DNA from: Gemmatimonadales bacterium
Lineage (GTDB): Bacteria; Gemmatimonadota; Gemmatimonadetes; Gemmatimonadales; GWC2-71-9
Assembly: GCA_041390205.1 (NCBI GenBank)
Contig: JAWKQJ010000008.1
Location: 5,842-69,841 of the forward strand
DNA: 64,000 nucleotides
Reading direction: 5' to 3'
Below are positions 39,490 through 57,100 of the stretch, one piece after another. The first letter of the stretch is position 1, and every line of letters begins with the position of its first letter. The translations under genes were made by a program, and so were the position numbers. A model generated the notes under the pieces. It did not search any database. It was given only the letters and a program-made list of their open reading frames with translations, and was not told the DNA's origin.

Positions 39490-39493
<4 letters not shown>
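38390..39493 (+). CDS. recF: DNA replication/repair protein RecF
   Basis: 367 aa with FRNLAPLDLELPEAGAVFLGPNGHGKTNLLE (Walker A) and LLLDDVFAELD. Confidence 0.9.
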
Positions 39494-42049
<2,556 letters not shown>

Positions 42050-42051
<2 letters not shown>

Positions 42052-43474: not shown

Positions 43475-44761
43475 TTACGGGCCGGAGCGAGCCAGCAGCG
43501 CCTGGATCGGGACCCGGCGACTGACGATCACCTGCTCCCCGACCTTGGGCAGCGCCATCACCGCGCCGGGCTGGCTCATGTCCGGCCGGGCGCGAGCCGC
43601 GTCATGGTGGGCCTGCTCGCTCTGCTGACTCCAGGCCACGACGAGCGAGTCGCCCGCCCGCCCGAGCACCGGAAACTCGGCCGCACCGTCCCCGCTCAGG
43701 GCGAGGGTCGGCCCGAACTCGGCCCCGCTCGTCGCCGCCCTGAGCAGGATCCGCGGCGACGGGCCATGGCCGTCGTCCCAGGCGACGGCCACGGCGCCGC
43801 CCAACGGCTGGACCCGCACGTGAGCCGGCGCCGAGCTGGCCGCCACCGCCACCGGACGGACCGTGAAGGTCCGGCCCTGATCCTCTGACCGGCCGTAGTA
43901 GACGCCCGCCGAGCCTTCCTTGCCCGTCCACCATCCGAGATGCACCACGCCCTCACGGTCGACCATGAGGGAGGGGCCGGCGTGCGGACACGCGGAGATC
44001 ACCCAGTCGTCCGCTCGAGGGCGGACCGGATCCAGCCAGGTCGCACCGCCGTCCGGGGACCGCATCACCACCACGTCGCGGGCCCCGTTCTCGAAGACCT
44101 TGCGCCAGGATACGTAGAGCGAGCCGTCCGGTCCGAGCGCGAGCCCGGTCCGGCAACAAGGGCAGGCCTCGCCGGTGTCGATCGGCCTGGCGGGCGCCCA
44201 GGTCCGGCCCCCGTCGTCGGAGCGCCGAAGCCAGACCGACGATCGCCCGGCGGTCGAGCTGAGCCAGGCCGCGTACACCCGCCCCGAGTCGCCGGCCAGG
44301 ACGGCGTGGAAGTTGTGCGAGCCGAAGCGCTCCCCTTCGTTCACGCTGATCGGCTCGCTCCAGCTCTGCCCGCGGTCTTCGGAGCGCACCAGACGCAGCG
44401 CGCTCCGCGGAAATCGCTGCCCCGGCACCTCTTTGCCGACGGTGTAGAGCAGATAGAGGGAGCCGTCCGGAGCGGTCGCGAGCTGCGGGGGCGCTTCGCC
44501 GTGGGGGGCGACGGCGCCGAGCGGGTCGGCCACCTCCGCCCGACTCGGCTCGCCACCGGTCGGGGTGACCTCGATCGCGAGCCCGCCGTCGGCGGTCACG
44601 TAGGAGAGCACCCGGTCGCCGCTCGGATCGATCGCCAGCATCGGCGCGGCGCCCTGGCCGAGCGGCGTGGAGACCTGCTCGACCGCCGAGAGCGGAACCG
44701 GGTCGCGCTCTCCGCAGCCTAACGTTGCGAGGAGCGGGATCCAGATCCAGGCCGCTCTCAT
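43475..44761 (-). CDS. BNR/Asp-box repeat (sialidase-fold) lipoprotein
   Basis: The internal ATG at 44761 (ATGA overlap with the copC stop) gives 428 aa. Lipobox LATLGC. Asp-boxes SEDRGQSW, SDDGGRTW, SPDGGATW, SEDQGRTF. Cys pairs ACPCC and ACPH. Confidence 0.7.
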   Translation of the reverse strand: MRAAWIWIPLLATLGCGERDPVPLSAVEQVSTPLGQGAAPMLAIDPSGDRVLSYVTADGGLAIEVTPTGGEPSRAEVADPLGAVAPHGEAPPQLATAPDGSLYLLYTVGKEVPGQRFPRSALRLVRSEDRGQSWSEPISVNEGERFGSHNFHAVLAGDSGRVYAAWLSSTAGRSSVWLRRSDDGGRTWAPARPIDTGEACPCCRTGLALGPDGSLYVSWRKVFENGARDVVVMRSPDGGATWLDPVRPRADDWVISACPHAGPSLMVDREGVVHLGWWTGKEGSAGVYYGRSEDQGRTFTVRPVAVAASSAPAHVRVQPLGGAVAVAWDDGHGPSPRILLRAATSGAEFGPTLALSGDGAAEFPVLGRAGDSLVVAWSQQSEQAHHDAARARPDMSQPGAVMALPKVGEQVIVSRRVPIQALLARSGP

Positions 44762-45132
44762 TCGCCAGCCACCTTGAACGCGAAGCGGCCTCGAACGGCA
44801 TGGCCGTCGTCGCTCGCCGTCCGCCAGACCACGGTATAGGTGCCCGGGCCGAGTGCGGCGCCGAGCGTCGCCCGGACCGCGAGGGAGTCCGCCCCCGCGG
44901 TCGGCTTCCCGACGGCGAGCTTGGCCCCGTCGGCCGCCAGCAGGTTGATGCTCGAGAACGCGACCGACGGCTTTTCCTTGAACCAGAGCTCGATGGTCCG
45001 GGGCGAGCTGGCCAGCGTCTCGTCCTCGGCCGGCGCGCTCCTGGTCAGGTGGTTGTGCATGGCGGCCACGGTCCCGGCGCCGAGCCCGACGAGCAGGGCC
45101 AGCACCGCGATCGGCGAGAAGATCCGCTTCAT
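44758..45132 (-). CDS. copC: CopC domain-containing periplasmic protein
   Basis: 124 aa: signal peptide, then HNHLTRSAPAEDETL, YTVVWRTASDDGHAVRGRFAFKV. Confidence 0.8.
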   Translation of the reverse strand: MKRIFSPIAVLALLVGLGAGTVAAMHNHLTRSAPAEDETLASSPRTIELWFKEKPSVAFSSINLLAADGAKLAVGKPTAGADSLAVRATLGAALGPGTYTVVWRTASDDGHAVRGRFAFKVAGE

Positions 45133-45190
45133 CGTTGCATCCTCCTATGGTGATCGGGGGCGCCGGGCGCGAGCCCGGCGCCACACCGGG

Positions 45191-47530
45191 TCAGTCCAGT
45201 CTCGCGGCGCCCAGGAAGTACTGGGCGCCGAGATAGAGCGTGCGCGGCTGGCCCGGCCGATAGCGGCGGCCCTGGAACGCGTTGTAGCTGGTGCTCTCGG
45301 CATACCGCGCGTTGCCGGCGTTCTGAAGGCGGCCGACCAGCTGCAGCCCGGTGACGACCGGGACGGCGGCCGAGAGGTTGAACAGGTCGTAGCCGTCGTA
45401 GCGCTCGGTGTTGTCCGGGTTCATCCAGTAGTGGCCCATGTGGACCCACTCGGCGGACAGGTAGCCGGAGCGCAGCAGGGCCGGCGTCCAGGTGGCGCCG
45501 ATCCGGCCCATGTTGCTCGGGGCGAGCTCGATGGTCTGCCCGCTGTAGTCGACCGTCGTGCTGGGCCGCCACTCCCGGTACTCCTGATCGGTGTACGCCC
45601 AGCTGCCGTCCACCCGGAACGCGGTGGTCGGTCGGACGCTCAAGCCCAGCTCGACGCCGCGGTGACGGGTGGCGCCGGCGTTGGTCGCGGTGCGGAGCCC
45701 GTTGGCGGGATCGAGAAAGGTGAGGATGTCGTCCGTGATGTCGAGCTGATAGAGCGTCACGTCGAAGCCGACCCGGCCGGCGACGTTGCCGCGGAGCCCC
45801 GCCTCGTAGTTGTCGGCCTTGACGGGCGCCAGGTCGACCGTGCTCACCGCCTGACCCTGCCGGAAGAGCTGGCTCTCCGACGGCGCGCGGAAGGCCGCGC
45901 GATAGGAGACGAAGGCGTTGAGGGAGGACGAGAGATCGAGTGTGGCGCCGAGCTTCGGCGTGAGCCGGCGATAGTCCACCGACGTCGAGCCGGGTACTCG
46001 GTGCGCGCCGGTCTGCACCGGGGCCAGCGCGGTCTCGTAGGAGAAGCCCACGTTGTCGAGCCGGAGACCGAAGTCGAGGTGCAGCCGATCGGCGACCGTC
46101 GCGTTGAGCTGCGCGTACGGCGACGCCTGCCAGAAGGTGACGTCGTAGTCGTACTGGACCTCGCCCGTGGTGTAGCTCACGTACCTGCCGGCATCCTGGG
46201 TCGGGACGATCTGCTGCTCGAGCCGGCTCCCGGGACTCACCTCCAGATCCAGGCCGACGCTCAGATTCGCGTTGAGCGCGGGAATCGTCCGGCGGAACCG
46301 GGTGAGCAAGCCGAGCGACGAGTTGCGGCTCTCCCAGACCTGGGGATCGAACGAGAGCTGCCACGAGGGCAGCAGGTCGAGCTCGTTGCGGCGTCCGTAG
46401 AGCGTGGCCGCGAAGAGGGAGAGGCCCTCCTGGCGCTCCAGCGTGGAGGACGCCCGGAGCGCGAAGACCCGCCGAAACGCGACCGGGGTCGAGTTCTTCG
46501 TCGGATCGGTGTCGAAGTCGGCTTGGGTGACCTCGCCGCCGCCGTCGCCGGGTTGGTCGATGTGGGAGAGCGCGACGACCGTCTTGAGCGAGGTCGTCGG
46601 CCCGACGGCATGGTCCCAGCGAACCGTCCCGCTCTGGCGGGAGTAGGGCGCCTGGTCCCGATAGCTGTCCGAGTGGGTCAGATTGAGGTCGGCGCGGAGG
46701 CCGTTCCGCCCCCAGGTGTTGCTCGCGCTGCCGAGGGCGCGGAGATAGCCGAAGCGACCGCCCTCCAGGAACAGCTCGCCGCCGGCCCCGGCGGTCGGAG
46801 CCCGGGTGAAGCTGCTCACCACGCCGCCGATCGCGTCGCTCCCGTAGAGCGCGGAGCCCGGCCCCTTGATCACCTCGATCCGGGCGGCCTGGGGAATGTT
46901 GATCTCGTAGAGCGCGTTGTGATTGAAGAAGCCGGTGGAACGGATCGGAACGCCGTCCTCGAGGTAGGCGTAGACCGGCTTGGTGGTGATCGGTTGGCGG
47001 ATCGCCGTGAAGTGGCCCTCGCCACTCAGGTTGGCGACCCAGGCGCCGGCCACCTGCTGCACGACGTCCGCAGGATGGTGCGGACGGGCGCGGCGCAGGG
47101 CCTCCTCGTCGACCACCCCGATGCTGGCGGCGGTCTCGCTCCTGGTCTGCGCCTCACGGGAGACGCTCACGACGAGGTCGTCGAGCGAGACCGGCTCGGC
47201 CTCGAGCACGACGTCGCGAGTCACCTCGGCGCCCGCCGTGACCCGCACGGTCACCCTGGTGGCTCCCCACCCGATTGCCCGGATCGCGATCTCCTGGGTG
47301 CCTGCCGGAACGCCGGTGAGCCGATAGCGACCCTCCGCGTCGCTCTCGACGCTCCGTCCCGTCGCCAACGCCCGGATCGACGCGCCGACCACGGCACGGC
47401 CTGAACCGGCCTCCACGACCCGACCGACGACCGTGCCGGTCGGGGCCTGCGCGCCGAGCGCACCGCTCGACAGCCAATACAGCGACATCACACCCGCCAC
47501 GACCCGGCGAGCGATCGAAGTCCAACGCAT
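45191..47530 (-). CDS. TonB-dependent receptor with N-terminal CarboxypepD_reg domain
   Basis: 779 aa. G(T/R)V.D..G.P..GA-type regulatory domain, plug (IEVIKGPGSALYGSDAIGGVV), and a long beta-barrel. Confidence 0.9.
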   Translation of the reverse strand: MRWTSIARRVVAGVMSLYWLSSGALGAQAPTGTVVGRVVEAGSGRAVVGASIRALATGRSVESDAEGRYRLTGVPAGTQEIAIRAIGWGATRVTVRVTAGAEVTRDVVLEAEPVSLDDLVVSVSREAQTRSETAASIGVVDEEALRRARPHHPADVVQQVAGAWVANLSGEGHFTAIRQPITTKPVYAYLEDGVPIRSTGFFNHNALYEINIPQAARIEVIKGPGSALYGSDAIGGVVSSFTRAPTAGAGGELFLEGGRFGYLRALGSASNTWGRNGLRADLNLTHSDSYRDQAPYSRQSGTVRWDHAVGPTTSLKTVVALSHIDQPGDGGGEVTQADFDTDPTKNSTPVAFRRVFALRASSTLERQEGLSLFAATLYGRRNELDLLPSWQLSFDPQVWESRNSSLGLLTRFRRTIPALNANLSVGLDLEVSPGSRLEQQIVPTQDAGRYVSYTTGEVQYDYDVTFWQASPYAQLNATVADRLHLDFGLRLDNVGFSYETALAPVQTGAHRVPGSTSVDYRRLTPKLGATLDLSSSLNAFVSYRAAFRAPSESQLFRQGQAVSTVDLAPVKADNYEAGLRGNVAGRVGFDVTLYQLDITDDILTFLDPANGLRTATNAGATRHRGVELGLSVRPTTAFRVDGSWAYTDQEYREWRPSTTVDYSGQTIELAPSNMGRIGATWTPALLRSGYLSAEWVHMGHYWMNPDNTERYDGYDLFNLSAAVPVVTGLQLVGRLQNAGNARYAESTSYNAFQGRRYRPGQPRTLYLGAQYFLGAARLD

Positions 47531-47620
47531 TCACCACACTCCCCCGGAGCCGACTCGCCCCGGTGAAAGAGATTGCAGCCGGTCGAGGAGACCGGCCAAG
47601 GCTGGGATTGGGAGAAGTGG

Positions 47621-47995
47621 TTAGGCGGTGGGTGGCGCTGTGGCCGGGGGCTGGCGGCGGTCCGGCCGGGCGGCCAACGGCGTGGCCGCCGCGAGTCGCG
47701 GCCCGGCCCGCTCGAACACGAGCGGCTCGAGGACCGGGGTGCCGGCGGCCTTCGGAACGGCCGCGGAGGACACCTGACAGGCGCCGAGGCACTGGCAGGT
47801 CCCGGCGTGGGTCCCACCCTGCTCCGGCGCCGTCTCGTGGTGGTGCCCCGCTCCCGACCCGGCCTCCGCCCCCGCCATCCACGGCATGTCGACCGGGCAT
47901 GGGTGCAGGACCGGCAACGCCACCCCGCCCAGGCCCGGCGAAGCACCGAGCAGGAGCAGGCTGAAGAGCCGGGAGTGGCGGAGCGAGCGCAGCAT
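47621..47995 (-). CDS. Secreted Cys/His-rich small protein (putative metal-binding, DUF2946-like guess)
   Basis: 124 aa with a signal-like N-terminus, HPCPVDMPWM, GHHHE and GTCQCLGAC. The family guess is tentative. Confidence 0.4.
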   Translation of the reverse strand: MLRSLRHSRLFSLLLLGASPGLGGVALPVLHPCPVDMPWMAGAEAGSGAGHHHETAPEQGGTHAGTCQCLGACQVSSAAVPKAAGTPVLEPLVFERAGPRLAAATPLAARPDRRQPPATAPPTA

Positions 47996-48034
47996 GGGAC
48001 TACACGCTAATGCCGGGACCAGGACGGCGCCAGA

Positions 48035-49417
48035 TCATTGCCGAGCGGCGAACTCCGCCAGGAAGGCCAACAACCGGTCGACGTCCTCCTCGTTGCTGGC
48101 GACGCCAAGCGAGGCCCGCAGCGCCCCGGCCGCGTATCCGGGGCCGAGGCAACGGCCGAACCGCTCCACCGAGAACTCCCCCGGCCCGAGACGATCGAGG
48201 CAGTCGCCGGTGCGATCCGCCGGAAAGCCGAAGGCGATCTCGGCGGCGCCGGGATTGCAGAAGCAGCCGCCGCGCAGGTGGATCCTACGGTCTCCGGCTT
48301 CGCGCTCGATCGCCTCGAACTCGATCACCTCGCCATTCGGCCGAAGCAGATTGAACGCGACGGTGCCGCCCCGGTCCACGACCGAGTCCGGGCCGTAGAG
48401 GGACACCATCGGAGAGCCGTCGGCATGCCGGAGGGCACGGAGACCGTCCAGCAGGCGGGCGGTCAGGTATCGCACCCAGCGTCCGATCGCGTCGACACCG
48501 ACCTGGTCGAGGAACTCGAGCCCGGGCACGACGCCGCCGATCCCGAGAAAATTCGGCGTCCCGTCCTCGAACGCCTCCGCGCCACGGCGGAGCTGATGGC
48601 GACCGAGCTGGACCGAGACGAAATCCACGGTCCCGCCCGCGAACCACGGCCGCTCCAGCTCGGCCAGCGCCTCGTGACGGGCGATCAACGCGCCGACGCC
48701 GGTGGGAAAGCCGAACATCTTGTAGAACGACAGGCAGACGAAGTCCGCCTTCACCTTGCTCAGGTCGAGCCGACTGGTCGGGGCGAAGGCGGCGGCGTCG
48801 AGCAGCACTCGGTACCCGGCGCTCCTGGCGCGATCCACCAGCGCGAGCGGGTGCCGCACCCCCGAGAAGTTCGACTGTGCCGGGAAGGCGAACAGCGAGG
48901 GGCCGGCTCCGGGCTCCGGAAGCCGCGTGGCGGGATCGAGACGGAGCTCCGCGTCGAGCGGCAAGTGCGCGATCGTCGCCCCGACCCGCTTGGCGTACTC
49001 CACCAACCCGTTGACCGAGTTGTGATTGTCCTCGAGCAGCGCGTAGACGGAGTCGGCGCGAAAGGGAAAGGACTCGCCCACCAGCTTGATGGCGGCCGAG
49101 GCGTTGGCGGTGAAGATGACGGTGTAGGACGCGGGGTCGGCGGAGAAGAACTCCAGCACCCGCGCCCGGGTGCGCTCGATCAGCTCGGTCGCGTAGACCG
49201 ACGCGGGGTTGTGCGAGTGCGGGTTCCCGATCAACGCGTGCTCGATCAGCTCGCGATAACGCTCCATCTGGCAGTGCGCATGAAGACCGCTGCCGGTGTA
49301 GTCGAGGTAGGCGTGCCCCTCCTCCTCGAGGCGCGAGAACTCGGTCTCGCGCAGCGCGGCGAAGCTGGCTCGATCCGCCTCGATCCGCTCGGCCTCCGAC
49401 CCGCTCAGAATCCGCAT
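48035..49417 (-). CDS. Class V aminotransferase-fold, MOCOS/ABA3-type NifS-like enzyme (no MOSC domain)
   Basis: The internal ATG at 49417 gives 460 aa. SFYKMFGFPTGVGALI (PLP-Lys region) and RGGCFCNPGA (catalytic Cys loop) match my memory of the N-terminal domains of eukaryotic molybdenum cofactor sulfurases. Confidence 0.75.
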   Translation of the reverse strand: MRILSGSEAERIEADRASFAALRETEFSRLEEEGHAYLDYTGSGLHAHCQMERYRELIEHALIGNPHSHNPASVYATELIERTRARVLEFFSADPASYTVIFTANASAAIKLVGESFPFRADSVYALLEDNHNSVNGLVEYAKRVGATIAHLPLDAELRLDPATRLPEPGAGPSLFAFPAQSNFSGVRHPLALVDRARSAGYRVLLDAAAFAPTSRLDLSKVKADFVCLSFYKMFGFPTGVGALIARHEALAELERPWFAGGTVDFVSVQLGRHQLRRGAEAFEDGTPNFLGIGGVVPGLEFLDQVGVDAIGRWVRYLTARLLDGLRALRHADGSPMVSLYGPDSVVDRGGTVAFNLLRPNGEVIEFEAIEREAGDRRIHLRGGCFCNPGAAEIAFGFPADRTGDCLDRLGPGEFSVERFGRCLGPGYAAGALRASLGVASNEEDVDRLLAFLAEFAARQ

Positions 49418-50028
49418 CCGCGCCTCCGTGCCTTCTCGACCATCGCCCGCTCGGCGAGCCGGCCGCCGGTCGGATCGTCGAGCCAGGCTGGCGTGCCGTC
49501 CGGCGGCCGGGGGCCGCCCCGGCGGGGCAACCCTCCGAAGTATCGGCTCAGCTCGCCGATCTCGGGCCACGCCGCGAGCTCGGCCTCGGTCGCCTCGTCG
49601 GGCAGCACGGGGTGCTCGATCGCCTCCAGCCAATCCGAGACCCCGCGCTCCAAATAGTAGACCCGGTCGAGGCCCTTCGCACGGAGCAACAGCCAGGCCT
49701 GAGCCGGGATCGGCCCCGCGCCGCCGTAGAGCACGATGGTCCGCCCCGGGTCGAGCCGTCTCCGCTCGAGCTCGACCAGCTCCACCCGCTCGGCCGTCGG
49801 GATGTGGAAGGCGCCGAAGTCGTCCTCGGACTGGAGATCGAGCAGGGTGAGATCGGCCCGCCTGCTCTTGATCCAGCGCGCGAGCTCGACCACCGAGAGC
49901 CGCCCTTCGCCCCGACCGATTCCCTCGACGAGGGCTGCCGGTATCCCGGCCGGGCGCGGCTGGCCTGCCAGCGCCGCCAGGACGCCCAGCGTGAGCGCCG
50001 CGAGCGCGAGTCGGGCGTGCCGGCTCAC
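49405..50028 (-). CDS. Rhodanese-homology domain protein lacking the catalytic Cys; C-terminal ..RRRGCGF
   Basis: GTG at 50028 in a GTGA overlap. N-terminal hydrophobic anchor or signal. Rhodanese fold LLDLQSEDDFGAFHIPTA..TIVLYGGAGPIPAQ has Gly where Cys is expected. Overlaps the next gene by 13 nt. Confidence 0.6.
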   Translation of the reverse strand: MSRHARLALAALTLGVLAALAGQPRPAGIPAALVEGIGRGEGRLSVVELARWIKSRRADLTLLDLQSEDDFGAFHIPTAERVELVELERRRLDPGRTIVLYGGAGPIPAQAWLLLRAKGLDRVYYLERGVSDWLEAIEHPVLPDEATEAELAAWPEIGELSRYFGGLPRRGGPRPPDGTPAWLDDPTGGRLAERAMVEKARRRGCGF

Positions 50029-50585
50029 CGCGCCGCCCGGCGGCGTTCGATCGCCTCCGCCAACCGGAAGGCGCCGAGCGCCGCCACCACCACGGCGAGC
50101 ACCGCGAGCCCGGGAGACACCCCGGCGAGGTCGCCGAGCGTCACCGTGCCCAGCGGTGAGGAATCGTAGAAGGAGGCGACCCGCGCGAAGCCCTCGTTGA
50201 ACACGACGATGCCGGCGCCCATCCCGAGCATCAGCGCCACGCCGTCGAGCCGGCCGGTCGAGGCGGCGACGCACGAGGTCCCGGGGCAGAGCCCACCCAT
50301 CACGAAGCCCAGGCCGAACACCGCGCCGCCGATCAAGTGCGGCCAGAGATAGGTCTCCGGCACGAAAACCCGGCCGACGTCGACCAGGCCGAGCCGACCC
50401 AGCCAGAAGAGGCCGAGCATCGCGGTCAGGATCGCCGAGAACATCACCTTGAGCACCGCGAAGTCGGTGAGGTAGAACTGACCGGCGAGCTTCCGCGCGC
50501 TTCCCATCCCGCCCTGCTCGAGGAAGAAGCCGAAGCCGACCCCGATCACGAGGGCGATCGCGATCTCGGAGCCGGTCACGTCCAC
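50025..50585 (-). CDS. YeeE/YedE family sulfur-transport membrane protein (half-size, B)
   Basis: About 186 aa. GTG at 50585 or 50579 overlaps the upstream stop. GGLCPGTSC motif. Confidence 0.75.
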   Translation of the reverse strand: MDVTGSEIAIALVIGVGFGFFLEQGGMGSARKLAGQFYLTDFAVLKVMFSAILTAMLGLFWLGRLGLVDVGRVFVPETYLWPHLIGGAVFGLGFVMGGLCPGTSCVAASTGRLDGVALMLGMGAGIVVFNEGFARVASFYDSSPLGTVTLGDLAGVSPGLAVLAVVVAALGAFRLAEAIERRRAAR

Positions 50586-51109
50586 TCCCGGCGGAAGAGC
50601 GGCGCCGCGAGATACGCGGCACCGAACGCCCCGACGATGAAGAGCCAGCTCCCGACGCTCAGCACGGCACCGCCCGAGAGCGCCTGCCCCGAGGTGCACC
50701 CGCGCGCCAGCTTGGCCCCCACGCCCATGATCGCGCCGCCGCCGAACGCCAGCGCGAGCCGGGCCCGGTCGGTGACCCGCGGCCCCCGCTCGATGGTTCG
50801 CCGGAAGCGGCCCGCCAGCCAGGCGGAGAGCGCCCCGCCCGCGAACACCCCGATCATCTCCCAGACCAGCCACTCGTCGAAGAGCGAACGGGGTCCCTCG
50901 GGAGCGTACGCCGCGTAGGCCGGGATCGAGGCCGCGTGCTCGGGCGCAACCAGCGACGCACCCGACGCGACCACGGAGGCGAACGCGCCGGAGGCGCCGA
51001 GCCCGCGCCCGACGAAGACGAACGCGGCGAGCAGCACCAGGCCGAGCCCGATCCCCGCGAGATAGGGATCGAGGTAGGGTCGCTCCTGCCGCGGGGAGGG
51101 GCCGGTCAT
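50576..51109 (-). CDS. YeeE/YedE family sulfur-transport membrane protein (half-size, A)
   Basis: 177 aa. The ATG at 51109 is in an ATGA overlap. ARGCTSGQALSG motif. Confidence 0.75.
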   Translation of the reverse strand: MTGPSPRQERPYLDPYLAGIGLGLVLLAAFVFVGRGLGASGAFASVVASGASLVAPEHAASIPAYAAYAPEGPRSLFDEWLVWEMIGVFAGGALSAWLAGRFRRTIERGPRVTDRARLALAFGGGAIMGVGAKLARGCTSGQALSGGAVLSVGSWLFIVGAFGAAYLAAPLFRREWT

Positions 51110-52020
51110 CGCCGCGTCGCCTCGGTGGTGAGCGGCAGGTCGCGCTTGGCCCAGTCCTGGAAGGAGCCGTCGTAGAGCCGCACCTCGTGGCCCAACACCC
51201 GGGCGGCCGTCAGGATCGAGTTGGCGTAGATCCCGATGTGGCAGTAGGCCACGACCACGTCGCCCGGCCGCACCCCGGCCGCGTCGAAGAGCGCGCGGAG
51301 CTCGGCGGTCGACTTGAAGCGTCCGTCTTCCTGCCAGACCTCCTGAACGCCGAGCGAGAGGGCGCCGGGCACGTGACCCGGCTTGCCGGGATCGTCCCGG
51401 CTGAACTGGCTGTTCCGCACCCCGTCGTAGAACGCCTGCCCTCGCGCGTCGATCACGGCCCACCCCTTGGCGTCGACGTGACCTCGCACGAACTCCGCGT
51501 CGACGACGAACCCGGTCCGAGGCCGGATCGTCAAGCTGCCCCGTGCCGTCGGCGACGCCTCGGCCGTGACCGGCCGGCCCGCGGCGGTCCAGGCCTCGAG
51601 GCCACCGTCGAGCACCACGGCCCGATCGCCCAGGCCGGCATAGTAGAGGGTCGAGAAGACCCGGAGCGCGCTGGTGCCCCAGTCCTTGGCGGCCACCACC
51701 ACCGGGCGGGACCGGTCCGACAAGCCGAGATCCTCGAGCTGCCGCTCGAGGGTCGAGTCGGCCGGGAACTCGACCGCGAGCGCGTCGGGACCCGACGGCG
51801 CGGTGATCGAGCCGAGCTGCACCTGACGCGCACCCGCGATGTGCGCCGTCTGGTAGGCGTCCTTCGGTCCGACGTGGAGGATCACCAGGTCGGGGTCGTT
51901 CAAGTGGGCCGCGAGCCATTCGACCGTGACGAAGAGGCGGTCACGGTGATCCTGCGCCGCCGCCGGCGCAGGGCCAATGGCGATCAGCACGGCAGTGAGA
52001 ACGGAGAGCTGCATGCGCAT
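51106..52020 (-). CDS. Secreted double-rhodanese sulfurtransferase, paralog 3
   Basis: 304 aa: signal peptide MRMQLSVLTAVLIAIGPAPAAAQ and two rhodanese domains. Active-site loop AYCHIGIYA. Confidence 0.8.
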   Translation of the reverse strand: MRMQLSVLTAVLIAIGPAPAAAQDHRDRLFVTVEWLAAHLNDPDLVILHVGPKDAYQTAHIAGARQVQLGSITAPSGPDALAVEFPADSTLERQLEDLGLSDRSRPVVVAAKDWGTSALRVFSTLYYAGLGDRAVVLDGGLEAWTAAGRPVTAEASPTARGSLTIRPRTGFVVDAEFVRGHVDAKGWAVIDARGQAFYDGVRNSQFSRDDPGKPGHVPGALSLGVQEVWQEDGRFKSTAELRALFDAAGVRPGDVVVAYCHIGIYANSILTAARVLGHEVRLYDGSFQDWAKRDLPLTTEATRR

Positions 52021-52052
52021 GAGCAAAGCCTCGGGTGATTCGTTCGACGGGA

Positions 52053-52937
52053 TCAGGGCCGCTCGACCGGGAGATCTGCCCGGGAGCTCCAGTCGGCCAT
52101 CGAGCCGACGTAGAGGCGCGCGCGCCGGCCGAGCACGCGGGCCACGAAGTAGAGGTGACTGGCCCGCATTCCGACCGTACAGTAGGCCACCACCTCGCGA
52201 TCGGGGGTCGCGCCGTTCGCGACGAGAAGGCGCTCGAGCTCCGGGCGAGGCTTGAGCCGGGCGCCCTCCGGAGGGTTGTCGGCCTCCGGACCGGTCGCGG
52301 GCACCTCGCCGGTCAGGGTCGCGACCCAGTGGAGATGCCGGGCGCCGGGAATGTGGCCCGCCCGCTCGACGCCGACGTCGCTCTGGCCCCGATACTCGGC
52401 GGCGGTCCGCGCGTCGAGCAACGCGGGCGCGGTCGAGCCGCGCCTGGCCGCGATCCACTCGGCGTCGACCACCAGGTCCGCCCGCACCCGCGGCTCGAAG
52501 CGCGCCCGCTTCGGCGCGGCGGCGGGTGTCGTGCTCACCTTGCCGCCGGCGGCCCGCCAGGCCGCGAGGCCGCCATCGAGGACGGCGGTGCGCGGGGCGT
52601 GCCCGAGGTAGTCGAGGGCAACGAAGACGAGCGCGGTCGCCATCGGGTCGCCGACCAGCACCACGCGGGTCGTGTTCGAGACGCCGAGCGCTTCGAAGGC
52701 GCCGACCAGGTCGGCGACGGGCAAGAGCCGGTCGCCCGCCTGATGGCCGTGAAAGCGCATCACGTCGGCGAAGCGCGCGCCGGGAACGTGCCCGGCGTCG
52801 TACTCGGCCTCGGACATCGAGGTGTGCAGCACCACCAGGTCCGGACGGTCGAGCTCGCGGCGGAGGGCCTCAGCGGAGACCACGAACGAGTCGCTCGGCG
52901 CCACCAGCAGCGTCGCCAGGCCAAACGCCGCGATCAC
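52053..52937 (-). CDS. Double-rhodanese sulfurtransferase, paralog 2
   Basis: GTG at 52937 in a GTGA overlap gives 294 aa. Short hydrophobic N-terminus. Active-site loop AYCTVGMRA. Confidence 0.75.
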   Translation of the reverse strand: MIAAFGLATLLVAPSDSFVVSAEALRRELDRPDLVVLHTSMSEAEYDAGHVPGARFADVMRFHGHQAGDRLLPVADLVGAFEALGVSNTTRVVLVGDPMATALVFVALDYLGHAPRTAVLDGGLAAWRAAGGKVSTTPAAAPKRARFEPRVRADLVVDAEWIAARRGSTAPALLDARTAAEYRGQSDVGVERAGHIPGARHLHWVATLTGEVPATGPEADNPPEGARLKPRPELERLLVANGATPDREVVAYCTVGMRASHLYFVARVLGRRARLYVGSMADWSSRADLPVERP

Positions 52938-53818
52938 CGGTCCGACCCCTCGGGGCCCTCGACCGGCAGGTCGGTCCGCCGCGCCCAGTCCTGGAACGAG
53001 CCGTCGTAGAGCGACGCATCGAGCCCGACGAGACGCGCCGCGAACCAGACCAGCGTCGCCTGCTGCCCGATGTGACAGTAGGCGATGACGCGCTTGCCGT
53101 TGCCGGCCCCGGCCGCCCGGAAGAGCCGCTCCAGCTCCGGCTTCGACTTGAGGAGTCCGTCCTGGCCCACGAGGGAGACGAACGGCAGGCTCTTGGCGTG
53201 CGGAATGTGACCGTTGCGCCCTTGCCGGGTCTCGCCGCCCTCGTAGAAGCGCTGTGCGCGCGCGTCGATCAGCGCCCCCGCGGGATCGTCGATCGCGGCT
53301 CGGACCTCCTTGGCGCCCACGACCACGCTCGGATCCACCCGCGGGGTGAAGTGACCCCGCTTCGGATTCGGCACCTCGGTGGTCACCTCGCGGCCGGCGG
53401 CCTTCCAGGCCTCGAGGCCCCCGTCGAGAAACGCCACCCGCCCGGCCAGGCCGGCCCACTCGAGCACCAGCGCCGTCCGAGAGGTCGGGGTGAAATACTC
53501 CTGCGCGAGCACCAGCACGATCTTCGAGTCGTCGGAGACGCCTTTGGCCTCGAGCACCGAGTCGAGCACTCCGATCTCGGGCAGCTCGAGGGTGAGGCCG
53601 CCTTCGGACGGCGGCGCGGACAGCTCGCGCCACGGATGGACGAACTGCGAGCCCGGGATGTGTCCGGCGTCGTACGCCGGCTTCGACCGGTCGTCACCGA
53701 TCTGAAAGAGCACCAGCTTCGGGTCGGCGAGATGCGCCGCCAGCCAGTCCACCGTCACCACCCGGGGAATTTCCGGCGGCTGGGCCAGCAGGGGCAGCGC
53801 GAGCAGCAGGGGCCACAT
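52934..53818 (-). CDS. Secreted double-rhodanese sulfurtransferase, paralog 1
   Basis: 294 aa with signal MWPLLLALPLLAQP. Active-site loop AYCHIGQQA. Confidence 0.85.
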   Translation of the reverse strand: MWPLLLALPLLAQPPEIPRVVTVDWLAAHLADPKLVLFQIGDDRSKPAYDAGHIPGSQFVHPWRELSAPPSEGGLTLELPEIGVLDSVLEAKGVSDDSKIVLVLAQEYFTPTSRTALVLEWAGLAGRVAFLDGGLEAWKAAGREVTTEVPNPKRGHFTPRVDPSVVVGAKEVRAAIDDPAGALIDARAQRFYEGGETRQGRNGHIPHAKSLPFVSLVGQDGLLKSKPELERLFRAAGAGNGKRVIAYCHIGQQATLVWFAARLVGLDASLYDGSFQDWARRTDLPVEGPEGSDR

Positions 53819-53939
53819 GGATCGTCTCCTGGTCGTCCGGATGTGGAGCCCTACGGGTCCGGCGGCCGGCTCGGATCGGGTTACGCAGCGAAACCCCGCC
53901 CTGATGCAGCGAATGGGTGGTCCCGTGCCGTCTCGGGGC

Positions 53940-54743
53940 TCAAAGCGCCTGGCCGAGCTGCGCCTCGAGCGCGGCGCGCCGGCTCCGGCTCAGCCGAACC
54001 CGCGCCCCGGTTCGCAGCAGCAGCACCAGATCGCCGTGCGGCGTCGGCTGGACTTCCTGGACCCGCTCGAGATTGACCACGGCCGAGCGATGGGCCCGGA
54101 AGAAGGCGCCCGGATCGAGTCGCCGCTCCAGGTTGGAGAGCGACTCGCGGATCACGTGGGTCCGGGTGCCGACGTGGACTTTGACGCAGTAATCGGCGGC
54201 CTCGATCCAATCGATCTCCTCGACCGGGACGAACAGCCTGGTGCCCGTCTTCCGGACCACCAGCCGGGTGAGCCAGCTCTCCGCCGGCTCCGGATCGAGC
54301 GCCGCGGCCTCGGTCCCGCCAATCGAGGAGAGCAGGCCCACCAGCCGCTTGGCGAGATCGTCGGCCGAGGCCACCCGCGCGGCGCGCTTGCCCCGATCGA
54401 GGGCGGTCGCGAAGCGGCGATCGTCGAACGGCTTGAGCAGGTAGTCGACGGCGTTCACCTCGAACGCCCTGAGGGCGTACTCGTCATAGGCGGTGACGAA
54501 GACCACGACGGGCATCCGCTCGACGCCGACGGCACGGATCACCGCGAAGCCGTCGACCTCGGGCATCTGCACGTCGAGCAGCACCAGGTCGGGCTCGAGC
54601 TCCCGAATGGCGCGGATCGCCTGGGCTCCGTCGCTGGCGTCACCCACCAGCTCGACCTCCGGATCGCGGGCGAGGAGGGCGATCAGACCCGACCTGGCGA
54701 GCGGCTCGTCGTCGACCACCAGGACCCGCACCGGCTCGCTCAT
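53940..54743 (-). CDS. LytR/AlgR family response regulator (REC + LytTR)
   Basis: 267 aa: VLVVDDEPLAR..DLVLLDVQMPE.. receiver domain, with a C-terminal LytTR domain (FFRAHRSAVVNL). Confidence 0.9.
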   Translation of the reverse strand: MSEPVRVLVVDDEPLARSGLIALLARDPEVELVGDASDGAQAIRAIRELEPDLVLLDVQMPEVDGFAVIRAVGVERMPVVVFVTAYDEYALRAFEVNAVDYLLKPFDDRRFATALDRGKRAARVASADDLAKRLVGLLSSIGGTEAAALDPEPAESWLTRLVVRKTGTRLFVPVEEIDWIEAADYCVKVHVGTRTHVIRESLSNLERRLDPGAFFRAHRSAVVNLERVQEVQPTPHGDLVLLLRTGARVRLSRSRRAALEAQLGQAL

Positions 54744-55882
54744 CCGACGGCGAGCTCCAGGTCCGCGCTTCCGCCGACGGTGGTCCGCCGCAGCGGGATC
54801 TCCACCCGCGCGATGGTACGCCCCTCCTCCCGGCGATGACTCAAGCTCGCCGCAGCCCCGTACAGCTGGTCGATCCGACTCCTGGTGTTCCGAATCCCGA
54901 TACCCGGGCTGCTCTCCCGCTCGTTGGGTCGGGGCTCGAAGCCAGGGCCGTCGTCCTGCACCTCGAGTCGGAGGATCTCGCCGTCCGCCCGCGCCGAGAT
55001 CCCGAGCTCGCCGGCCCGGGCGCGCTTGGCGATCCCGTGTCGGATCGCGTTCTCGACCAGCGGCTGGAGCACCAGCGACGGCACCTCGGCGTCGAGCAGA
55101 TCGGGTGGGACGTCGATCGTCACCCGCAACCGGTCGGCGAAGCGGGTTCGCTCGATCTCGAGGTAGCGCTCGATGAAGACCAGCTCGTTCCGGAGACTGG
55201 TCTCCTGGGGCGGCGAGTCCACCAGCACGTGGCGGAGCAGCTCGGAGAGACCGGCCAGCATCTCGACCGCCTGGGCGCCGTCGCCGCGACGCACCAGCAT
55301 CGCGATCGTGTTCATGGTGTTGAAGAGGAAATGCGGATTGAGCTGCATCCGGAGGGCGTCCAGCCGCGCTTCGGCCAGCTGGCGGCCAAGGGCTTCGGCG
55401 GTCAGCTCACGGTCGCGCATCCGGGCGTAGTAGTCGGTGGCGAGCACCGCGCCGAAGAGGACGCCGTACCCGGTGACCCCGACCGCGAGTCGGAAGATGA
55501 CGCCCTGGAAGTAGACCGTGAGAAACGCGCCGTCCGGAGTCGGGAAGGCGAGCAGGCGATGCGCGGCCAGCAGGAGGGCCTGGTGGGCCAGCACCGCCAG
55601 CAGCGCGGTGGTCACGTGCAGCGGGATCACCACGGCGAGTCGGCCGCGGACCAGGGGCCAGCGACGGATCGCCCAGTGCACGACGGGCGTGAAGAGGATC
55701 CAGAGGAACCAGACGGGCGCCTCTTTGGAGACGGCGTGCCAGACGGTCTTCCAGCCGTCCTCGACGTCGCCCAGCTGCATCACGGTCCAGTGCTGGGCCG
55801 AGGTGATCACCGCCAGCACCAGGGCGCCGATCAGGAGCGCCTTGAGGGTAGGGGTCCGGGAAACCGACGGAGGGCGGCTCAT
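54740..55882 (-). CDS. Sensor histidine kinase, LytS/YehU-type (His_kinase + HATPase_c)
   Basis: The internal ATG at 55882 gives 380 aa. About 4 N-terminal TM helices, LNPHFLFNTMNTI, LQPLVENAIRHG, DDGPGF. 4-nt overlap with the response regulator. Confidence 0.85.
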   Translation of the reverse strand: MSRPPSVSRTPTLKALLIGALVLAVITSAQHWTVMQLGDVEDGWKTVWHAVSKEAPVWFLWILFTPVVHWAIRRWPLVRGRLAVVIPLHVTTALLAVLAHQALLLAAHRLLAFPTPDGAFLTVYFQGVIFRLAVGVTGYGVLFGAVLATDYYARMRDRELTAEALGRQLAEARLDALRMQLNPHFLFNTMNTIAMLVRRGDGAQAVEMLAGLSELLRHVLVDSPPQETSLRNELVFIERYLEIERTRFADRLRVTIDVPPDLLDAEVPSLVLQPLVENAIRHGIAKRARAGELGISARADGEILRLEVQDDGPGFEPRPNERESSPGIGIRNTRSRIDQLYGAAASLSHRREEGRTIARVEIPLRRTTVGGSADLELAVG

Positions 55883-55983
55883 GGAGACCAAGCTAAGGCC
55901 CGGCCGGGGGCTGCGGGACCAGGGGTGCGGCGGCTGGGAGACTCCCGCCCGCGAACGGGCCGGAGACCAGGGCGAGCGGCGGC

Positions 55984-56907
55984 CTAGCCGCCCCGCTTGC
56001 CCTGGTTCGACTTGGCGAGCGCGCGCTCGAAGCAGCGGAGCACCCACCCGAAGCCGCCCGGCTCCCGAACCCCGCGGACCGTCTCGTTGGCATGGATCCG
56101 GAAGAGCCGCCCGAGCGCCGCGGTCGTCGGAAAGCCCACCGAGCGGGCCACCGCGGCGATCGGCTCGGTCGAGCGCTCCAGCCGGTAGGCGGCGGTCAGC
56201 AGGCGGCTCCACCGGACCAGCACGCTCACCGGCGGCATCCCACCCCGCTTGAGCTCCGCCGCCAGCTGCCGGGCCGTCAGGCCCATCGCCCGAGCCACCA
56301 GGGCCGCCGTGGGCTTGGCCGCCGCCCGGTCCAGGACGAACCGCACCACCGGCACCAAGGCCTCCGGCACCCGGCGGGCGAGCGCCTGGTCGGTGAGCTG
56401 CTGGAAGGTGACGTCGGTGGCCCGGGTGAGCGCGCTCAGGAGCCGCTCCTCGAGCTCGGACTCGTCGCGGAAGACCACCGCCGAGACGCCCGCCCGGGCC
56501 AGGTCGGCGAGGGCGCCGGCCGGCACCTGCCGGTCGCACCAGAGCACGATCGGGAGCGCCGGCCTGGCCGCGCGGATCTTGGCGACGGCGGCGGTGGTGC
56601 GGCCGTTCCAGCGGTCCGCCACGTCGACCACGACGCCCAAGGCGTGGCGCGACTCGGAGCGGACCACCAGGTCGTCCGGGTCGTCGCACCAGGCGATGTC
56701 ACCGAACGCGCGGCAGTACTCGGCAAAGCGCGGCCGAAGCCCCGCGTCGGCCAGCTGGACCAGGATGTGGTGGACCGAAGCGAAGCCCCGGGCTTCGAGC
56801 GCGCGCGGCCCCCGGCCGTTCCCACGCGGACGCGCGGGGGGACTCGACTGAGGACGACCCTCGCCATACCAGGCTGCGGCTCGCGCGGCTGTCGCGGATT
56901 CGGTCAT
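55984..56907 (-). CDS. Helix-turn-helix (AraC-like) transcriptional regulator with receiver-like N-terminal domain
   Basis: The internal ATG at 56907 gives 307 aa. The C-terminal part LVARAMGLTARQLAAELKRGG..IAAVARSVGFPTTAALGRLFR is a tandem HTH. Confidence 0.6.
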   Translation of the reverse strand: MTESATAARAAAWYGEGRPQSSPPARPRGNGRGPRALEARGFASVHHILVQLADAGLRPRFAEYCRAFGDIAWCDDPDDLVVRSESRHALGVVVDVADRWNGRTTAAVAKIRAARPALPIVLWCDRQVPAGALADLARAGVSAVVFRDESELEERLLSALTRATDVTFQQLTDQALARRVPEALVPVVRFVLDRAAAKPTAALVARAMGLTARQLAAELKRGGMPPVSVLVRWSRLLTAAYRLERSTEPIAAVARSVGFPTTAALGRLFRIHANETVRGVREPGGFGWVLRCFERALAKSNQGKRGG

Positions 56908-56925
56908 AGCTCCATTCGGTCCATC

Positions 56926-56955
56926 GCACTGCAGCGCCATGCACTGAAGTGCCAT
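56926..56955. promoter_or_regulatory. Tandem 15-bp direct repeat GCACTGCAGCGCCAT / GCACTGAAGTGCCAT
   Basis: 13 of 15 positions identical, starting 19 nt upstream of the HTH regulator ATG, with flanking CCATTCG copies at 56912 and 56952. Confidence 0.25.
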
Positions 56956-56989
56956 TCGACGCACCCGAGCCGCCGCACCCCCGATCCTT

Positions 56990-57015
56990 TGCGATTTGCC
57001 CATTGGACAATCGCA
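56990..57015. promoter_or_regulatory. Inverted repeat TGCGATT-N12-AATCGCA
   Basis: Perfect 7-bp arms, 83-108 nt upstream of the HTH regulator start. Confidence 0.25.
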
Positions 57016-57100
57016 CGACACCGGGCGGACGACGCCTAAGTGCTTGTTCCGCTGCCGGGTTCGGCCTCGGCGAGCGGCCTGCCCCGAGAGAGGGCAAGCC

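Follow-up and report, generated by a model that had tools for sequence, protein, structure and literature searches.

Both the import of sulfur and the sensing of external sulfur are stated to be poorly understood (PMC11582611), and the described systems closest to the one reported here are built around channels of the YeeE/YedE family. In TsuA-TsuB (YeeE-YeeD), a YeeE-family channel with a Cys relay imports thiosulfate together with an obligatory Cys-bearing partner, YeeD, which is essential for TsuA, docks at the cytoplasmic mouth of the channel as the bearer of a 'fourth cysteine', and is naturally fused to the YeeE C-terminus (PMC11073785). Full-length YeeE has nine transmembrane (TM) helices (PMC11582611). 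Serratia PmpAB and the YedE1E2 pairs of Cupriavidus and Sinorhizobium are encoded by adjacent half-size PF04143 genes, the C-terminal half first; the halves, of ~130 aa and four TM helices, each carry one essential conserved Cys, are proposed to form a heterodimer that relays sulfane sulfur, and are controlled by an ArsR-type repressor (PMC10812762, PMC11582611). Zero-valent sulfur is imported but not exported by YedE1E2, and it was not carried by full-length YedE3 (PMC10812762). On the periplasmic side, a role for SoxT1A in importing the sulfur of persulfidated SoxYZ has been proposed (PMC11582611), and PspE, a periplasmic rhodanese, makes cellular sulfane sulfur out of thiosulfate (PMC10215317). 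Here we describe a seven-gene operon in a 64,000-nucleotide stretch of DNA from a soil Gemmatimonadales bacterium (GenBank assembly GCA_041390205.1, contig JAWKQJ010000008.1, positions 5,842 to 69,841; hereafter the window). It combines a split YeeE channel with rhodaneses and a desulfurase-like enzyme, next to a two-component system (TCS). We propose, with moderate confidence, that these genes form a TCS-regulated relay of sulfane sulfur across the envelope, most likely directed inwards.

The seven genes, g1 to g7, are co-directional in-frame open reading frames (ORFs) on the minus strand, spanning 48035-53818; their coordinates, read from the sequence, are given in Table 1. Successive genes are joined by a GTGA overlap (g1/g2, 52934-52937), an ATGA overlap (g3/g4, 51106-51109), a GTG/TGA overlap (g4/g5, 50576-50585), a further GTGA overlap (g5/g6, 50025-50028) and a 13-nt overlap (g6/g7, 49405-49417). 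An alternative GTG start of g5, at 50579, would give a 4-nt overlap with g4. Shine-Dalgarno-like motifs lie ahead of g1 (AGGAG, 8 nt before the ATG), g2, g3 and g7. Profile searches with Pfam assigned domains to all seven proteins and, together with a rereading of every junction, bore out the gene order, domain types, overlaps and single 32-nt gap that the first-pass annotation had reported. The same genes are present at 91-99% identity in a second metagenome-assembled genome (GCA_050184075.1, locus L001).

The products of g4 and g5, referred to as YeeC and YeeN, had been taken for a split YeeE/YedE pair, and Pfam agrees. It places g4 on the C-terminal half of Sulf_transp (PF04143; 72.1 bits, 7.9e-20, profile positions 177-309 of 310) and g5 on the N-terminal half (54.6 bits, 1.7e-14, positions 4-150), against a cut-off of 27. 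As in PmpAB/YedE1E2, the half-size genes are adjacent with the C-terminal half first, and a heterodimer relaying sulfane sulfur is proposed here as it is there. Each half has a conserved Cys motif (LARGCTSGQ in g4, LCPGTSC in g5), of which GCTSG and LCPGT are at least 90% conserved among 60-66 homologues; by profile position these Cys residues would correspond to Cys91/Cys293 of TsuA, and their equivalents in CpYedE1E2 are essential (PMC10812762). Nevertheless, the pair departs from PmpAB/YedE1E2 in several respects. Both halves are longer, g5 has five hydrophobic segments, the fifth being an added TM helix at its C-terminal side that corresponds to the central one of full-length YeeE, followed by a basic C-terminal tail, and its LCPGTSC motif holds a second conserved Cys. 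Moreover, the halves are always accompanied by the g6 product, RhdX, and by a periplasmic enzyme, and the control element is a TCS instead of an ArsR-type repressor. The nearest Cupriavidus relative, a DUF6691 plasmid gene, is ~37% identical, and matches to the TsuA models (NF052577 / NF041049) reach 37.1, 19.5 and 19.3 bits, against cut-offs of 400-645. The locus further differs from TsuA-TsuB in that the channel is split and YeeD is absent. The YTD cluster of sulfur disproportionators (YedE-TusA-DsrE-Chp; PMC13047784, PMC12998232) likewise keeps a YeeE-family channel and sulfurtransferases in a conserved cluster, but with a full-length YeeE and cytoplasmic TusA/DsrE, and without a periplasmic rhodanese, RhdX or an enzyme dependent on pyridoxal phosphate (PLP).

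RhdX contains one Pfam Rhodanese domain (43.8 bits), and its only fold matches in the PDB (Foldseek) are single-domain rhodaneses. From its N-terminus, the protein consists of a hydrophobic helix preceded by basic residues, the rhodanese fold, the motif LSRYFGG.P, a linker that varies, and, at the C-terminus, a basic cluster with Gly-Cys. In the active-site loop, the Cys that marks a catalytic rhodanese (PF00581) is replaced by Gly or Ser (LY[SG]EGGAHA). It was on this account called a Cys-less rhodanese, which is correct for the loop but not for the protein: it has an invariant Cys, residue 205, in the C-terminal RRRGCGF-COOH, the form that the tail takes in the window's clade. In the alignment of homologues, R201, R202, G204 and C205 are invariant, as is the stretch L160-G166. 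Among 251 full-length members of the family, 245 have a Cys within the last five residues, while none has one in the loop. The tail reads [KR]3-6-EGC in a large subclade, and Bacteroidota members end in K5..GGC[ST]. An AlphaFold2 model gives a pLDDT of 88 for the rhodanese domain and of 54-66 for the tail, which is presumably flexible. A profile search of 1.84 billion representatives returned 308 clusters (50% identity) at E<=1e-30; they come from several phyla, are abundant in soil and freshwater-sediment metagenomes, and carry, where annotated, only generic names such as 'rhodanese-like domain-containing protein'. Two other readings of the protein's ends were rejected: the RRRGC tail is not a PEP-CTERM/LPXTG-type sorting signal, since no hydrophobic segment precedes it, and a twin-arginine translocation (Tat) signal is not indicated, since there is no conserved twin-arginine motif.

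Natural YeeN-RhdX fusions recur (P0257, P0271, P0279, P0378 and P0319; loci L056, L058, L062, L065 and L075; and a Fulvitalea plasmid described below), and the loop that leads from the final helix of YeeN to that of RhdX is Arg/Lys-rich. This Rosetta-stone evidence argues that RhdX is a subunit of the channel. Its orientation follows from the positive-inside rule and hydropathy, by which topology and signal peptides were judged by eye throughout, and from the known fusions. Given that natural YeeE-YeeD fusions exist and that YeeD docks on the cytoplasmic face (PMC11073785), the YeeE C-terminus is cytoplasmic; YeeN, being the N-terminal half plus the central helix, should therefore also end in the cytoplasm, and the RhdX helix would lead out from there, so that the rhodanese domain and the Cys arm are predicted to face the periplasm, tethered to the channel. 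We propose that RhdX is a tethered periplasmic sulfur-carrier arm of the channel. The swinging arm of SoxY is GGCGG. The SoxYZ/SoxT1A import model (PMC11582611) similarly has a periplasmic protein, with sulfur bound covalently to a Cys near its Gly-rich C-terminus, deliver this sulfur to a YeeE-like channel, for use in the cytoplasm. The analogy is functional only: SoxY has an Ig-like fold and acts with SoxZ, whereas g6 has a rhodanese fold and the tail RRRGCGF. Unlike that of SoxY, the RhdX arm is strongly basic (RRRGC, K5-EGC) and membrane-tethered or channel-fused, and no sox genes accompany it. As with YeeE and YeeD, a Cys-bearing partner would dock at one mouth of the channel, and fusions of channel and partner occur in nature. 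Compared with YeeD, which has the TusA fold and sits on the cytoplasmic side, RhdX would be a TM-anchored partner of rhodanese fold at the periplasmic mouth.

Each of g1, g2 and g3 encodes two Pfam Rhodanese domains and a single Cys, located in the active-site loop of the C-terminal domain, as in catalytic rhodaneses (PF00581). The loop reads YCHIGQQAT in g1, which is the family consensus (CHIGQQA[ST] in orthologues), YCTVGMRAS in g2 and YCHIGIYAN in g3; CTVGMRAS is kept in the second rhodanese of loci L082 and L084, and CHIGIYAN in the cassette rhodanese of locus L078. Because each type keeps its own loop with a single Cys in its orthologues, the three look like functional and distinct rhodaneses. 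Among the rhodaneses that follow the LytTR-type TCS in L082/L084, the first shares 59-61% identity with the g1 product and the second 44-52% with that of g2, and g3 is 69% identical to the L078 protein; to judge from sequence, every cassette begins with an orthologue of g3. All three score 82-105 bits against the NCBIfam 3-mercaptopyruvate sulfurtransferase model SseA (NF008557), below its cut-off of 250. It should also be noted that g1-type rhodaneses occur singly (L083:7001-7891). The idea that all three are secreted held only in part: they are indeed tandem rhodaneses, and g3 has a textbook signal peptide (MRMQLSVLTAVLIAIGPAPAAA, with Q following the cleavage site), but g1 and g2 begin, as do their orthologues, with short hydrophobic N-termini, which in g1 and g2 have no positive n-region. 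Sud-Psr is a known periplasmic rhodanese system. Both PspE (PMC10215317) and Sud are exported proteins of rhodanese fold that collect sulfane sulfur from thiosulfate or polysulfide and hand it on, as we propose for g1-g3. Unlike them, g1-g3 are tandem-domain proteins of ~300 aa with a CH[IV]GQQAT-type loop, and are genetically tied to a dedicated channel.

The last gene, g7, has Aminotran_5 as its only Pfam domain (150 bits, 1.1e-43). Its best PDB match by sequence is SufS (8.6e-25), and its AlphaFold2 model (pLDDT 88.5) is nearest to SufS/CsdB in Foldseek (TM-score 0.75-0.85, 22-26% identity), while its NCBIfam scores are 131 for SufS (cut-off 475) and 78 for CsdA (cut-off 607). The PLP lysine, Lys233 (SFYK), and Cys385/387 (RGGCFCNPGA), whose roles are assigned by motif position, are invariant in 36 homologues. 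With neither a signal peptide nor a MOSC domain, g7 is predicted to be a cytoplasmic enzyme resembling group-II cysteine desulfurases. The MOCOS-type label given to it at first could not be kept, given the lack of a MOSC domain and the SufS/CsdB folds; 'molybdenum cofactor sulfurtransferase' is the JGI name of some homologues only, and many others are named 'selenocysteine lyase/cysteine desulfurase'. The label otherwise draws on the RGGCFCNPGA motif. Genes for SufE, SufU or CsdE partners were found neither in the window nor in related loci, and the cassette encodes no SufE, CsdE, TusA or DsrE. Group-II desulfurases normally need a dedicated persulfide acceptor, and ABA3-type desulfurases hand persulfide to rhodaneses (PMC8931425). 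Desulfurase-type PLP enzymes are likewise linked to rhodanese-domain proteins in a persulfide relay in the ABA3/MOCOS NifS-like domain with STR18 and in bacterial CD-Rhd fusions (PMC8931425), but in the present case the membrane is predicted to separate the two. The g7 family is very large (the search returned at least 8000 matches), and close relatives, 58-60% identical, stand alone in unrelated Gemmatimonadota contexts (L079-L081). Hence, the cassette g7 would be a recruited accessory instead of a defining part.

To follow these genes across genomes, a profile of g6 homologues was used to collect 71 species-level genome loci. All synteny counts below are conditional on RhdX and cover only loci with enough flanking sequence. 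The loci comprise ~44 from Gemmatimonadota, 4 from Longimicrobia, 6 from Acidobacteriota, 8 from Alphaproteobacteria (Asticcacaulis solisilvae BE327 and Asticcacaulis sp. AC460, both isolates, among them), 1 from Steroidobacteraceae and 1 from Telluria; by larger group, they belong to Gemmatimonadota, Acidobacteriota, and Alpha-, Beta- and Gammaproteobacteria. Searches with the window proteins (tblastn) revealed a rigid order of tandem rhodanese, YeeC, YeeN, RhdX and PLP enzyme. Next to RhdX, YeeN was present in all 67 loci, YeeC in all 64 and the tandem rhodanese in all 59, nearly all of the cassette rhodaneses having Sec-type signal peptides. Of 61 loci, 50 (82%) have the PLP enzyme next and 11 lack it; among the latter, no common substitute for it was found. 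A response regulator is encoded within 3.7 kb in 42 of 53 loci, and beyond the TCS no neighbour is conserved in more than 9 of ~70 loci. Given that the order recurs across at least four phyla, and that distant loci show the same 4-7-nt overlaps, the gene arrangement is not due to chance. Its invariant core, as far as sequence can tell, is the YeeC-YeeN-RhdX triad. The co-occurrence check proposed in the first-pass annotation thus turned out in its favour, and so did its link between secreted sulfurtransferases and a split channel; the desulfurase belongs to that link in 82% of loci only.

The window's operon is nevertheless a composite of two modules. Module A (LytS-like kinase, LytTR regulator, g1 and g2) stands alone, the transporter being absent, at L082:5015-9539 and L084:4930-9725. 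These loci were reached via g1 homologues at ~60% identity, and they encode two or three secreted rhodaneses, of g1 type, of g2 type and a third; a convergent TauE-family gene follows the module in L082. Module B is found in L078 with no adjacent TCS (g3-type rhodanese 69%, YeeC 74%, YeeN 73%, RhdX 51% and PLP enzyme 61% identical), and the cultured strain Gemmatirosa kalamazoonensis KBS708 has a full module-B cassette on its plasmid 1 (about 401-418 kb). Since the modules occur apart in these loci, the 32-nt gap between g2 and g3 is the seam. The notion of seven genes as one dedicated unit therefore needs to be qualified: the cassette is conserved and co-inherited, but modules A and B also exist separately and the PLP enzyme is accessory.

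Sister operons combine the triad with other periplasmic enzymes. In the EGC-tailed sister clade, the order (MerR)-PhsA-like-4Fe4S-NrfD-YeeC-YeeN-RhdX was seen in 24 of 24 metagenome loci with enough flank (L093-L171), often with a CMD-family gene next. The PhsA-like molybdenum subunit scores 531 bits against PhsA (cut-off 694) and has the Tat signal SRRKFLK. A Chondrinema litorale plasmid shows the same arrangement with a second Cys-less anchored rhodanese. The sister operon, to which the loci L087:654-6591 and L090:1579-7660 also belong, has at least 431 relatives, mostly in freshwater-sediment and wetland samples, and appears to be undescribed. In Fulvitalea axinellae, plasmid pFA1 (L085:3189-7152) encodes an octahaem tetrathionate reductase, a cytochrome b, YeeC, and a 399-aa YeeN-RhdX fusion ending in KKKKKAQGGCT, which gives the triad a third type of periplasmic partner. 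At L090, SQR-like, DsrC and DsrE-like genes lie close to the triad. No desulfurase is encoded with the PhsABC-linked or the tetrathionate-reductase-linked triads. To judge from these gene contents, what the triad loci have in common is a periplasmic enzyme whose substrate is thiosulfate, polysulfide or tetrathionate.

In the window, a kinase/LytTR pair lies 121 nt upstream of g1. The kinase, which lacks Cys and has ~4 TM helices, matches Pfam His_kinase (PF06580, 2.1e-24) as well as HATPase_c; its stop overlaps the start of the regulator gene (ATGA, 54740-54743). The regulator has Response_reg and LytTR domains and scores 167 bits against the NCBIfam BtsR model (cut-off 246). A PF06580 kinase encoded together with a receiver-LytTR regulator constitutes a LytS/LytTR TCS. 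In the module-A loci L082 and L084, the orthologues share 55% identity for the kinase and 60-66% for the regulator; in Longimicrobium cassette loci, the regulator is 58-60% identical. The adjacent pair is part of the system. Upstream of g1, 65-95 nt before its ATG, lies a 10-bp direct repeat, TTCGCTGCAT-N11-TTCGCTGCGT, that occurs nowhere else in the window and in none of 100 shuffles. LytTR sites typically have a 21-bp period. The same repeat, CGGTTCGCTGCGGTG, occurs twice with a 21-bp period upstream of the L078 cassette rhodanese, though no TCS is adjacent there; GGT[TC]CGCTGC occurs twice with that period in Longimicrobium locus L030, and similar 21-bp-period repeats were seen in Telluria, Asticcacaulis and Hyphomonadaceae loci. 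The post-hoc enrichment of such repeats, 3 of 15 against a background of 0.85%, is only suggestive. We regard the repeat upstream of g1 as a candidate LytTR box. Most Gemmatimonadota cassettes have an OmpR-type pair instead of the LytTR pair, and for both kinase types NCBIfam recognised generic transmitter domains only and no sensor family. The OmpR-type kinase (L003:3313-5031 and 32 homologues, upstream of cassettes in Gemmatimonadota) has a ~300-aa periplasmic domain that matches no known family and contains a conserved C-x-C-H motif and His/Met positions (NhG...H, MPT.wGDT); this domain may be a site for sensing sulfane sulfur or metal. Upstream of the window's kinase, an AraC-type (HTH_18) regulator gene (55984-56910, minus strand) is conserved in L001.

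Table 1. Features of the operon and of its upstream region (window coordinates).
Feature	Position	Strand	Start and length	Assignment
g1	52934-53818	-	ATG start, 294 aa	Tandem-domain rhodanese type 1
g2	52053-52937	-	GTG start, 294 aa	Tandem-domain rhodanese type 2
g3	51106-52020	-	ATG start, 304 aa	Predicted secreted tandem-domain rhodanese type 3
g4 (YeeC)	50576-51109	-	ATG start, 177 aa	Half-size YeeE/YedE, C-terminal half
g5 (YeeN)	50025-50585	-	GTG start, 186 aa	Half-size YeeE/YedE, N-terminal half
g6 (RhdX)	49405-50028	-	GTG start, 207 aa	Predicted TM-anchored rhodanese fold without catalytic Cys
g7	48035-49417	-	ATG start, 460 aa	PLP-dependent class V enzyme
Sensor histidine kinase	54740-55882	-	380 aa	LytS/YehU type
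Response regulator	53940-54743	-	267 aa	LytTR type, BtsR-like
Candidate LytTR box	53883-53913	-		Direct repeat, 21-bp period
32-nt spacer	52021-52052	-		Sole non-overlapping junction, between g2 and g3; module A/module B seam

What the analysis shows is gene content, conservation, fusions, motifs, and predicted folds and topology; for the proposed relay, the chemical species, the individual transfers, the way the sulfur moves, what g7 does and what induces the operon are inferred. Thiosulfate or polysulfide would give up sulfane sulfur to the single catalytic Cys of the secreted tandem rhodaneses, with g3 as the cassette's own member and g1 and g2 probably derived from a LytTR-controlled rhodanese module that was joined upstream. 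The sulfur would then pass to the C-terminal Cys of RhdX, which would be anchored beside the channel by one TM helix and would carry this Cys on a flexible, strongly basic arm, analogous to that of SoxY. The arm would hand it to the conserved Cys of a g4/g5 heterodimer, a channel of the PmpAB/YedE1E2 type, from which it would emerge in the cytoplasm, where the co-translated g7 would be the local partner. There, g7 might either accept the sulfur on its mobile Cys, much as the 'fourth cysteine' of YeeD does, or feed the same persulfide pool from cysteine. The kinase and the LytTR regulator would switch the operon on via the direct-repeat box.

The first-pass annotation had rightly held that the direction cannot be told from the sequence; we favour import and regard export as less likely. 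Import is favoured because all characterised YeeE/YedE members import, because the parts that never vary are those on the periplasmic side, 18% of loci doing without the cytoplasmic enzyme, and because no desulfurase accompanies the triad in the sister clades, where it sits behind other periplasmic enzymes of thiosulfate, polysulfide or tetrathionate. At L090, cytoplasmic carriers (DsrC and DsrE-like) are encoded nearby. That a periplasmic rhodanese can feed cellular sulfane sulfur has a precedent in PspE, and the SoxYZ-to-SoxT1A model is analogous. Given that module A occurs on its own, its rhodaneses probably work with an external sulfur source. Several points weigh against an inward relay. 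Import leaves the PLP chemistry of g7 without a necessary role, despite its invariant Lys/Cys and its translational coupling to g6; furthermore, since group-II desulfurases normally need a dedicated acceptor (PMC8931425) and none is present in the cassette, the channel itself could be the acceptor of g7 persulfide, and export would result. The N-termini of g1 and g2 are atypical, and g4/g5 appear far from characterised importers, both by their NCBIfam scores and by their ~37% identity. In addition, the synteny counts presuppose RhdX.

Of the other explanations, an outward relay survives best; we consider it unlikely, yet worth taking seriously. According to this proposal, g7 would draw persulfide from cytoplasmic cysteine and pass it to a cytoplasm-facing Cys of the channel, from which it would reach the RhdX arm and then the secreted rhodaneses, possibly for the conversion of cyanide to thiocyanate or of sulfite to thiosulfate, or for the sequestration of thiophilic metals. 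Every part would then have a role, PLP chemistry included, which agrees with the retention of the Lys/Cys residues and the group-II desulfurase fold in g7. Such desulfurases need a specific acceptor, of which no soluble one is encoded here, and rhodaneses are the persulfide recipients of the ABA3-type ones (PMC8931425). A stress response would agree with TCS control, and the presence of three rhodanese types, each with a conserved loop of its own, suggests several acceptors. Mild encouragement comes from metal-related genes scattered around the cassettes (in the window, those for CopC, a TonB receptor and a Cys/His-rich protein; in L078, an RND pump and a P-type ATPase; elsewhere, cupredoxin and His/Met-rich proteins), although these are not conserved family-wide. 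However, no YeeE/YedE member is known to export, and YedE1E2, when tested, did not (PMC10812762). Moreover, the desulfurase is missing from 11 of 61 cassettes and from every PhsABC- or tetrathionate-reductase-linked triad, and module A rhodaneses exist without any transporter. Should sulfur indeed flow outwards, this would be the first dedicated pathway of sulfane-sulfur export supplying the periplasm, for instance in defence against cyanide, sulfite or thiophilic metals. A broader version, in which the triad is a general trans-membrane persulfide relay whose arm plugs varied periplasmic sulfur enzymes into the cytoplasm, and which runs outwards in the window's clade with the desulfurase feeding the secreted rhodaneses, strikes us as doubtful.

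It is improbable that the channel takes up the intact thiosulfate anion as TsuA/YeeE does, with the rhodaneses and RhdX only binding or concentrating the anion and g7 unrelated to transport. The TsuA models are among the best NCBIfam matches of g4 and g5, but with scores of 19-37 bits, far below their cut-offs; a basic arm and a vestigial rhodanese pocket could bind the anion, but the invariant terminal Cys and the single-Cys rhodaneses argue for covalent transfer. The enzymes that accompany the triad in sister clades do make or use thiosulfate. However, it was the split YedE1E2, and not full-length YedE3, that carried zero-valent sulfur (PMC10812762), and there is no YeeD/TusA partner, which TsuA requires (PMC11073785).

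Very improbable, in our judgement, is a system that moves or detoxifies selenium or tellurium species by means of a YedE-like channel, rhodaneses and a selenocysteine-lyase-like enzyme. It would agree with the JGI labels of many g7 homologues and with NCBIfam matches to the YedE/FdhT selenium transporter (NF033796, TIGR04112) and to the ExtH selenite/tellurite rhodanese, yet these matches are weak and far below cut-off (33.5 against 350 and 31.8 against 200 for the transporter models; 52-62 against 200 for ExtH), selD, selA, ybbB and yedF were not seen in any of ~150 loci, and the sister-clade partners are sulfur enzymes. That the genes have no joint function, being mere neighbours or including a PLP enzyme that independently serves molybdenum cofactor sulfuration or Fe-S supply, is hardly credible: the operon is visibly composite, the PLP family occurs alone elsewhere and some homologues bear molybdenum cofactor sulfurtransferase names, but against this stand the rigid order with overlapping starts and stops across phyla, the adjacent PLP gene in 50 of 61 loci, the gene fusions, and the absence of MOSC, XdhC and xdh genes nearby.

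Downstream of g7, an ORF at 47621-47995 (minus strand) encodes a secreted, Cys/His-rich protein of 124 aa (HPCP, HHH, CQCLGAC) with no family match. Beyond it, on the same strand, lie genes for a TonB-dependent receptor (45191-47530), a CopC-domain protein (44758-45132) and a BNR-repeat protein (43475-44680), and the group as a whole looks like a copper-acquisition cluster. A hairpin at 47576-47598, the only terminator-like one outside coding sequence, parts the Cys/His-rich ORF from the receptor gene. In 7-9 Gemmatimonadaceae loci (L011:10779-12584, L014, L017, L020, L040, L042), His/Met-rich secreted proteins and tandem cupredoxin-like proteins follow the PLP gene on the same strand, and in L078 a divergent Czc-like RND pump and a P-type ATPase adjoin the cassette. 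The metal theme around the cassettes is thus recurring but not universal. A link to nosZ/CuZ maturation was considered and dropped, the cassette being present in diverse lineages and nos genes being absent from the loci examined. The operon is otherwise surrounded by housekeeping genes (recF-like, gyrB, MatE and ligA-like); a RecF/SMC-type ORF (38390-39493) and the C-terminal portion of gyrB (40561-42051), both on the plus strand and ~6-10 kb away, suggest an origin-proximal chromosomal position. Plus-strand antisense ORFs of 516-854 aa (48038-49657, 52526-54076 and 44840-47404) were rejected as genes, such ORFs being the usual artefact at the window's G+C content of ~72%. No RNA family of Rfam was matched within 47000-57500, and a sigma-70 scan found no promoter-like site.

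Full-text literature searches turned up no description of the system, in agreement with the initial impression that the combination had not been described. Its parts are of known kinds, namely a PmpAB/YedE1E2-type channel, a periplasmic rhodanese and a desulfurase, and its logic resembles that of TsuA-YeeD and SoxYZ-SoxT. Not found in the literature were a carrier like RhdX, tethered or fused to its channel and ending in a Cys, a five-gene cassette of fixed order that comes with a TCS, and a triad paired in modular fashion with periplasmic sulfur enzymes of several kinds.

Taken together, the locus and its relatives offer a testable architecture, consisting of a periplasmic sulfane-sulfur enzyme, a channel-tethered carrier, a split YeeE channel, a cytoplasmic partner and a sensor system. 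Since cultured carriers exist (G. kalamazoonensis KBS708, A. solisilvae BE327 and Asticcacaulis sp. AC460), both genetics and biochemistry are feasible. At its centre is the putative carrier family RhdX, which is widespread in several phyla and yet passes under generic annotation.

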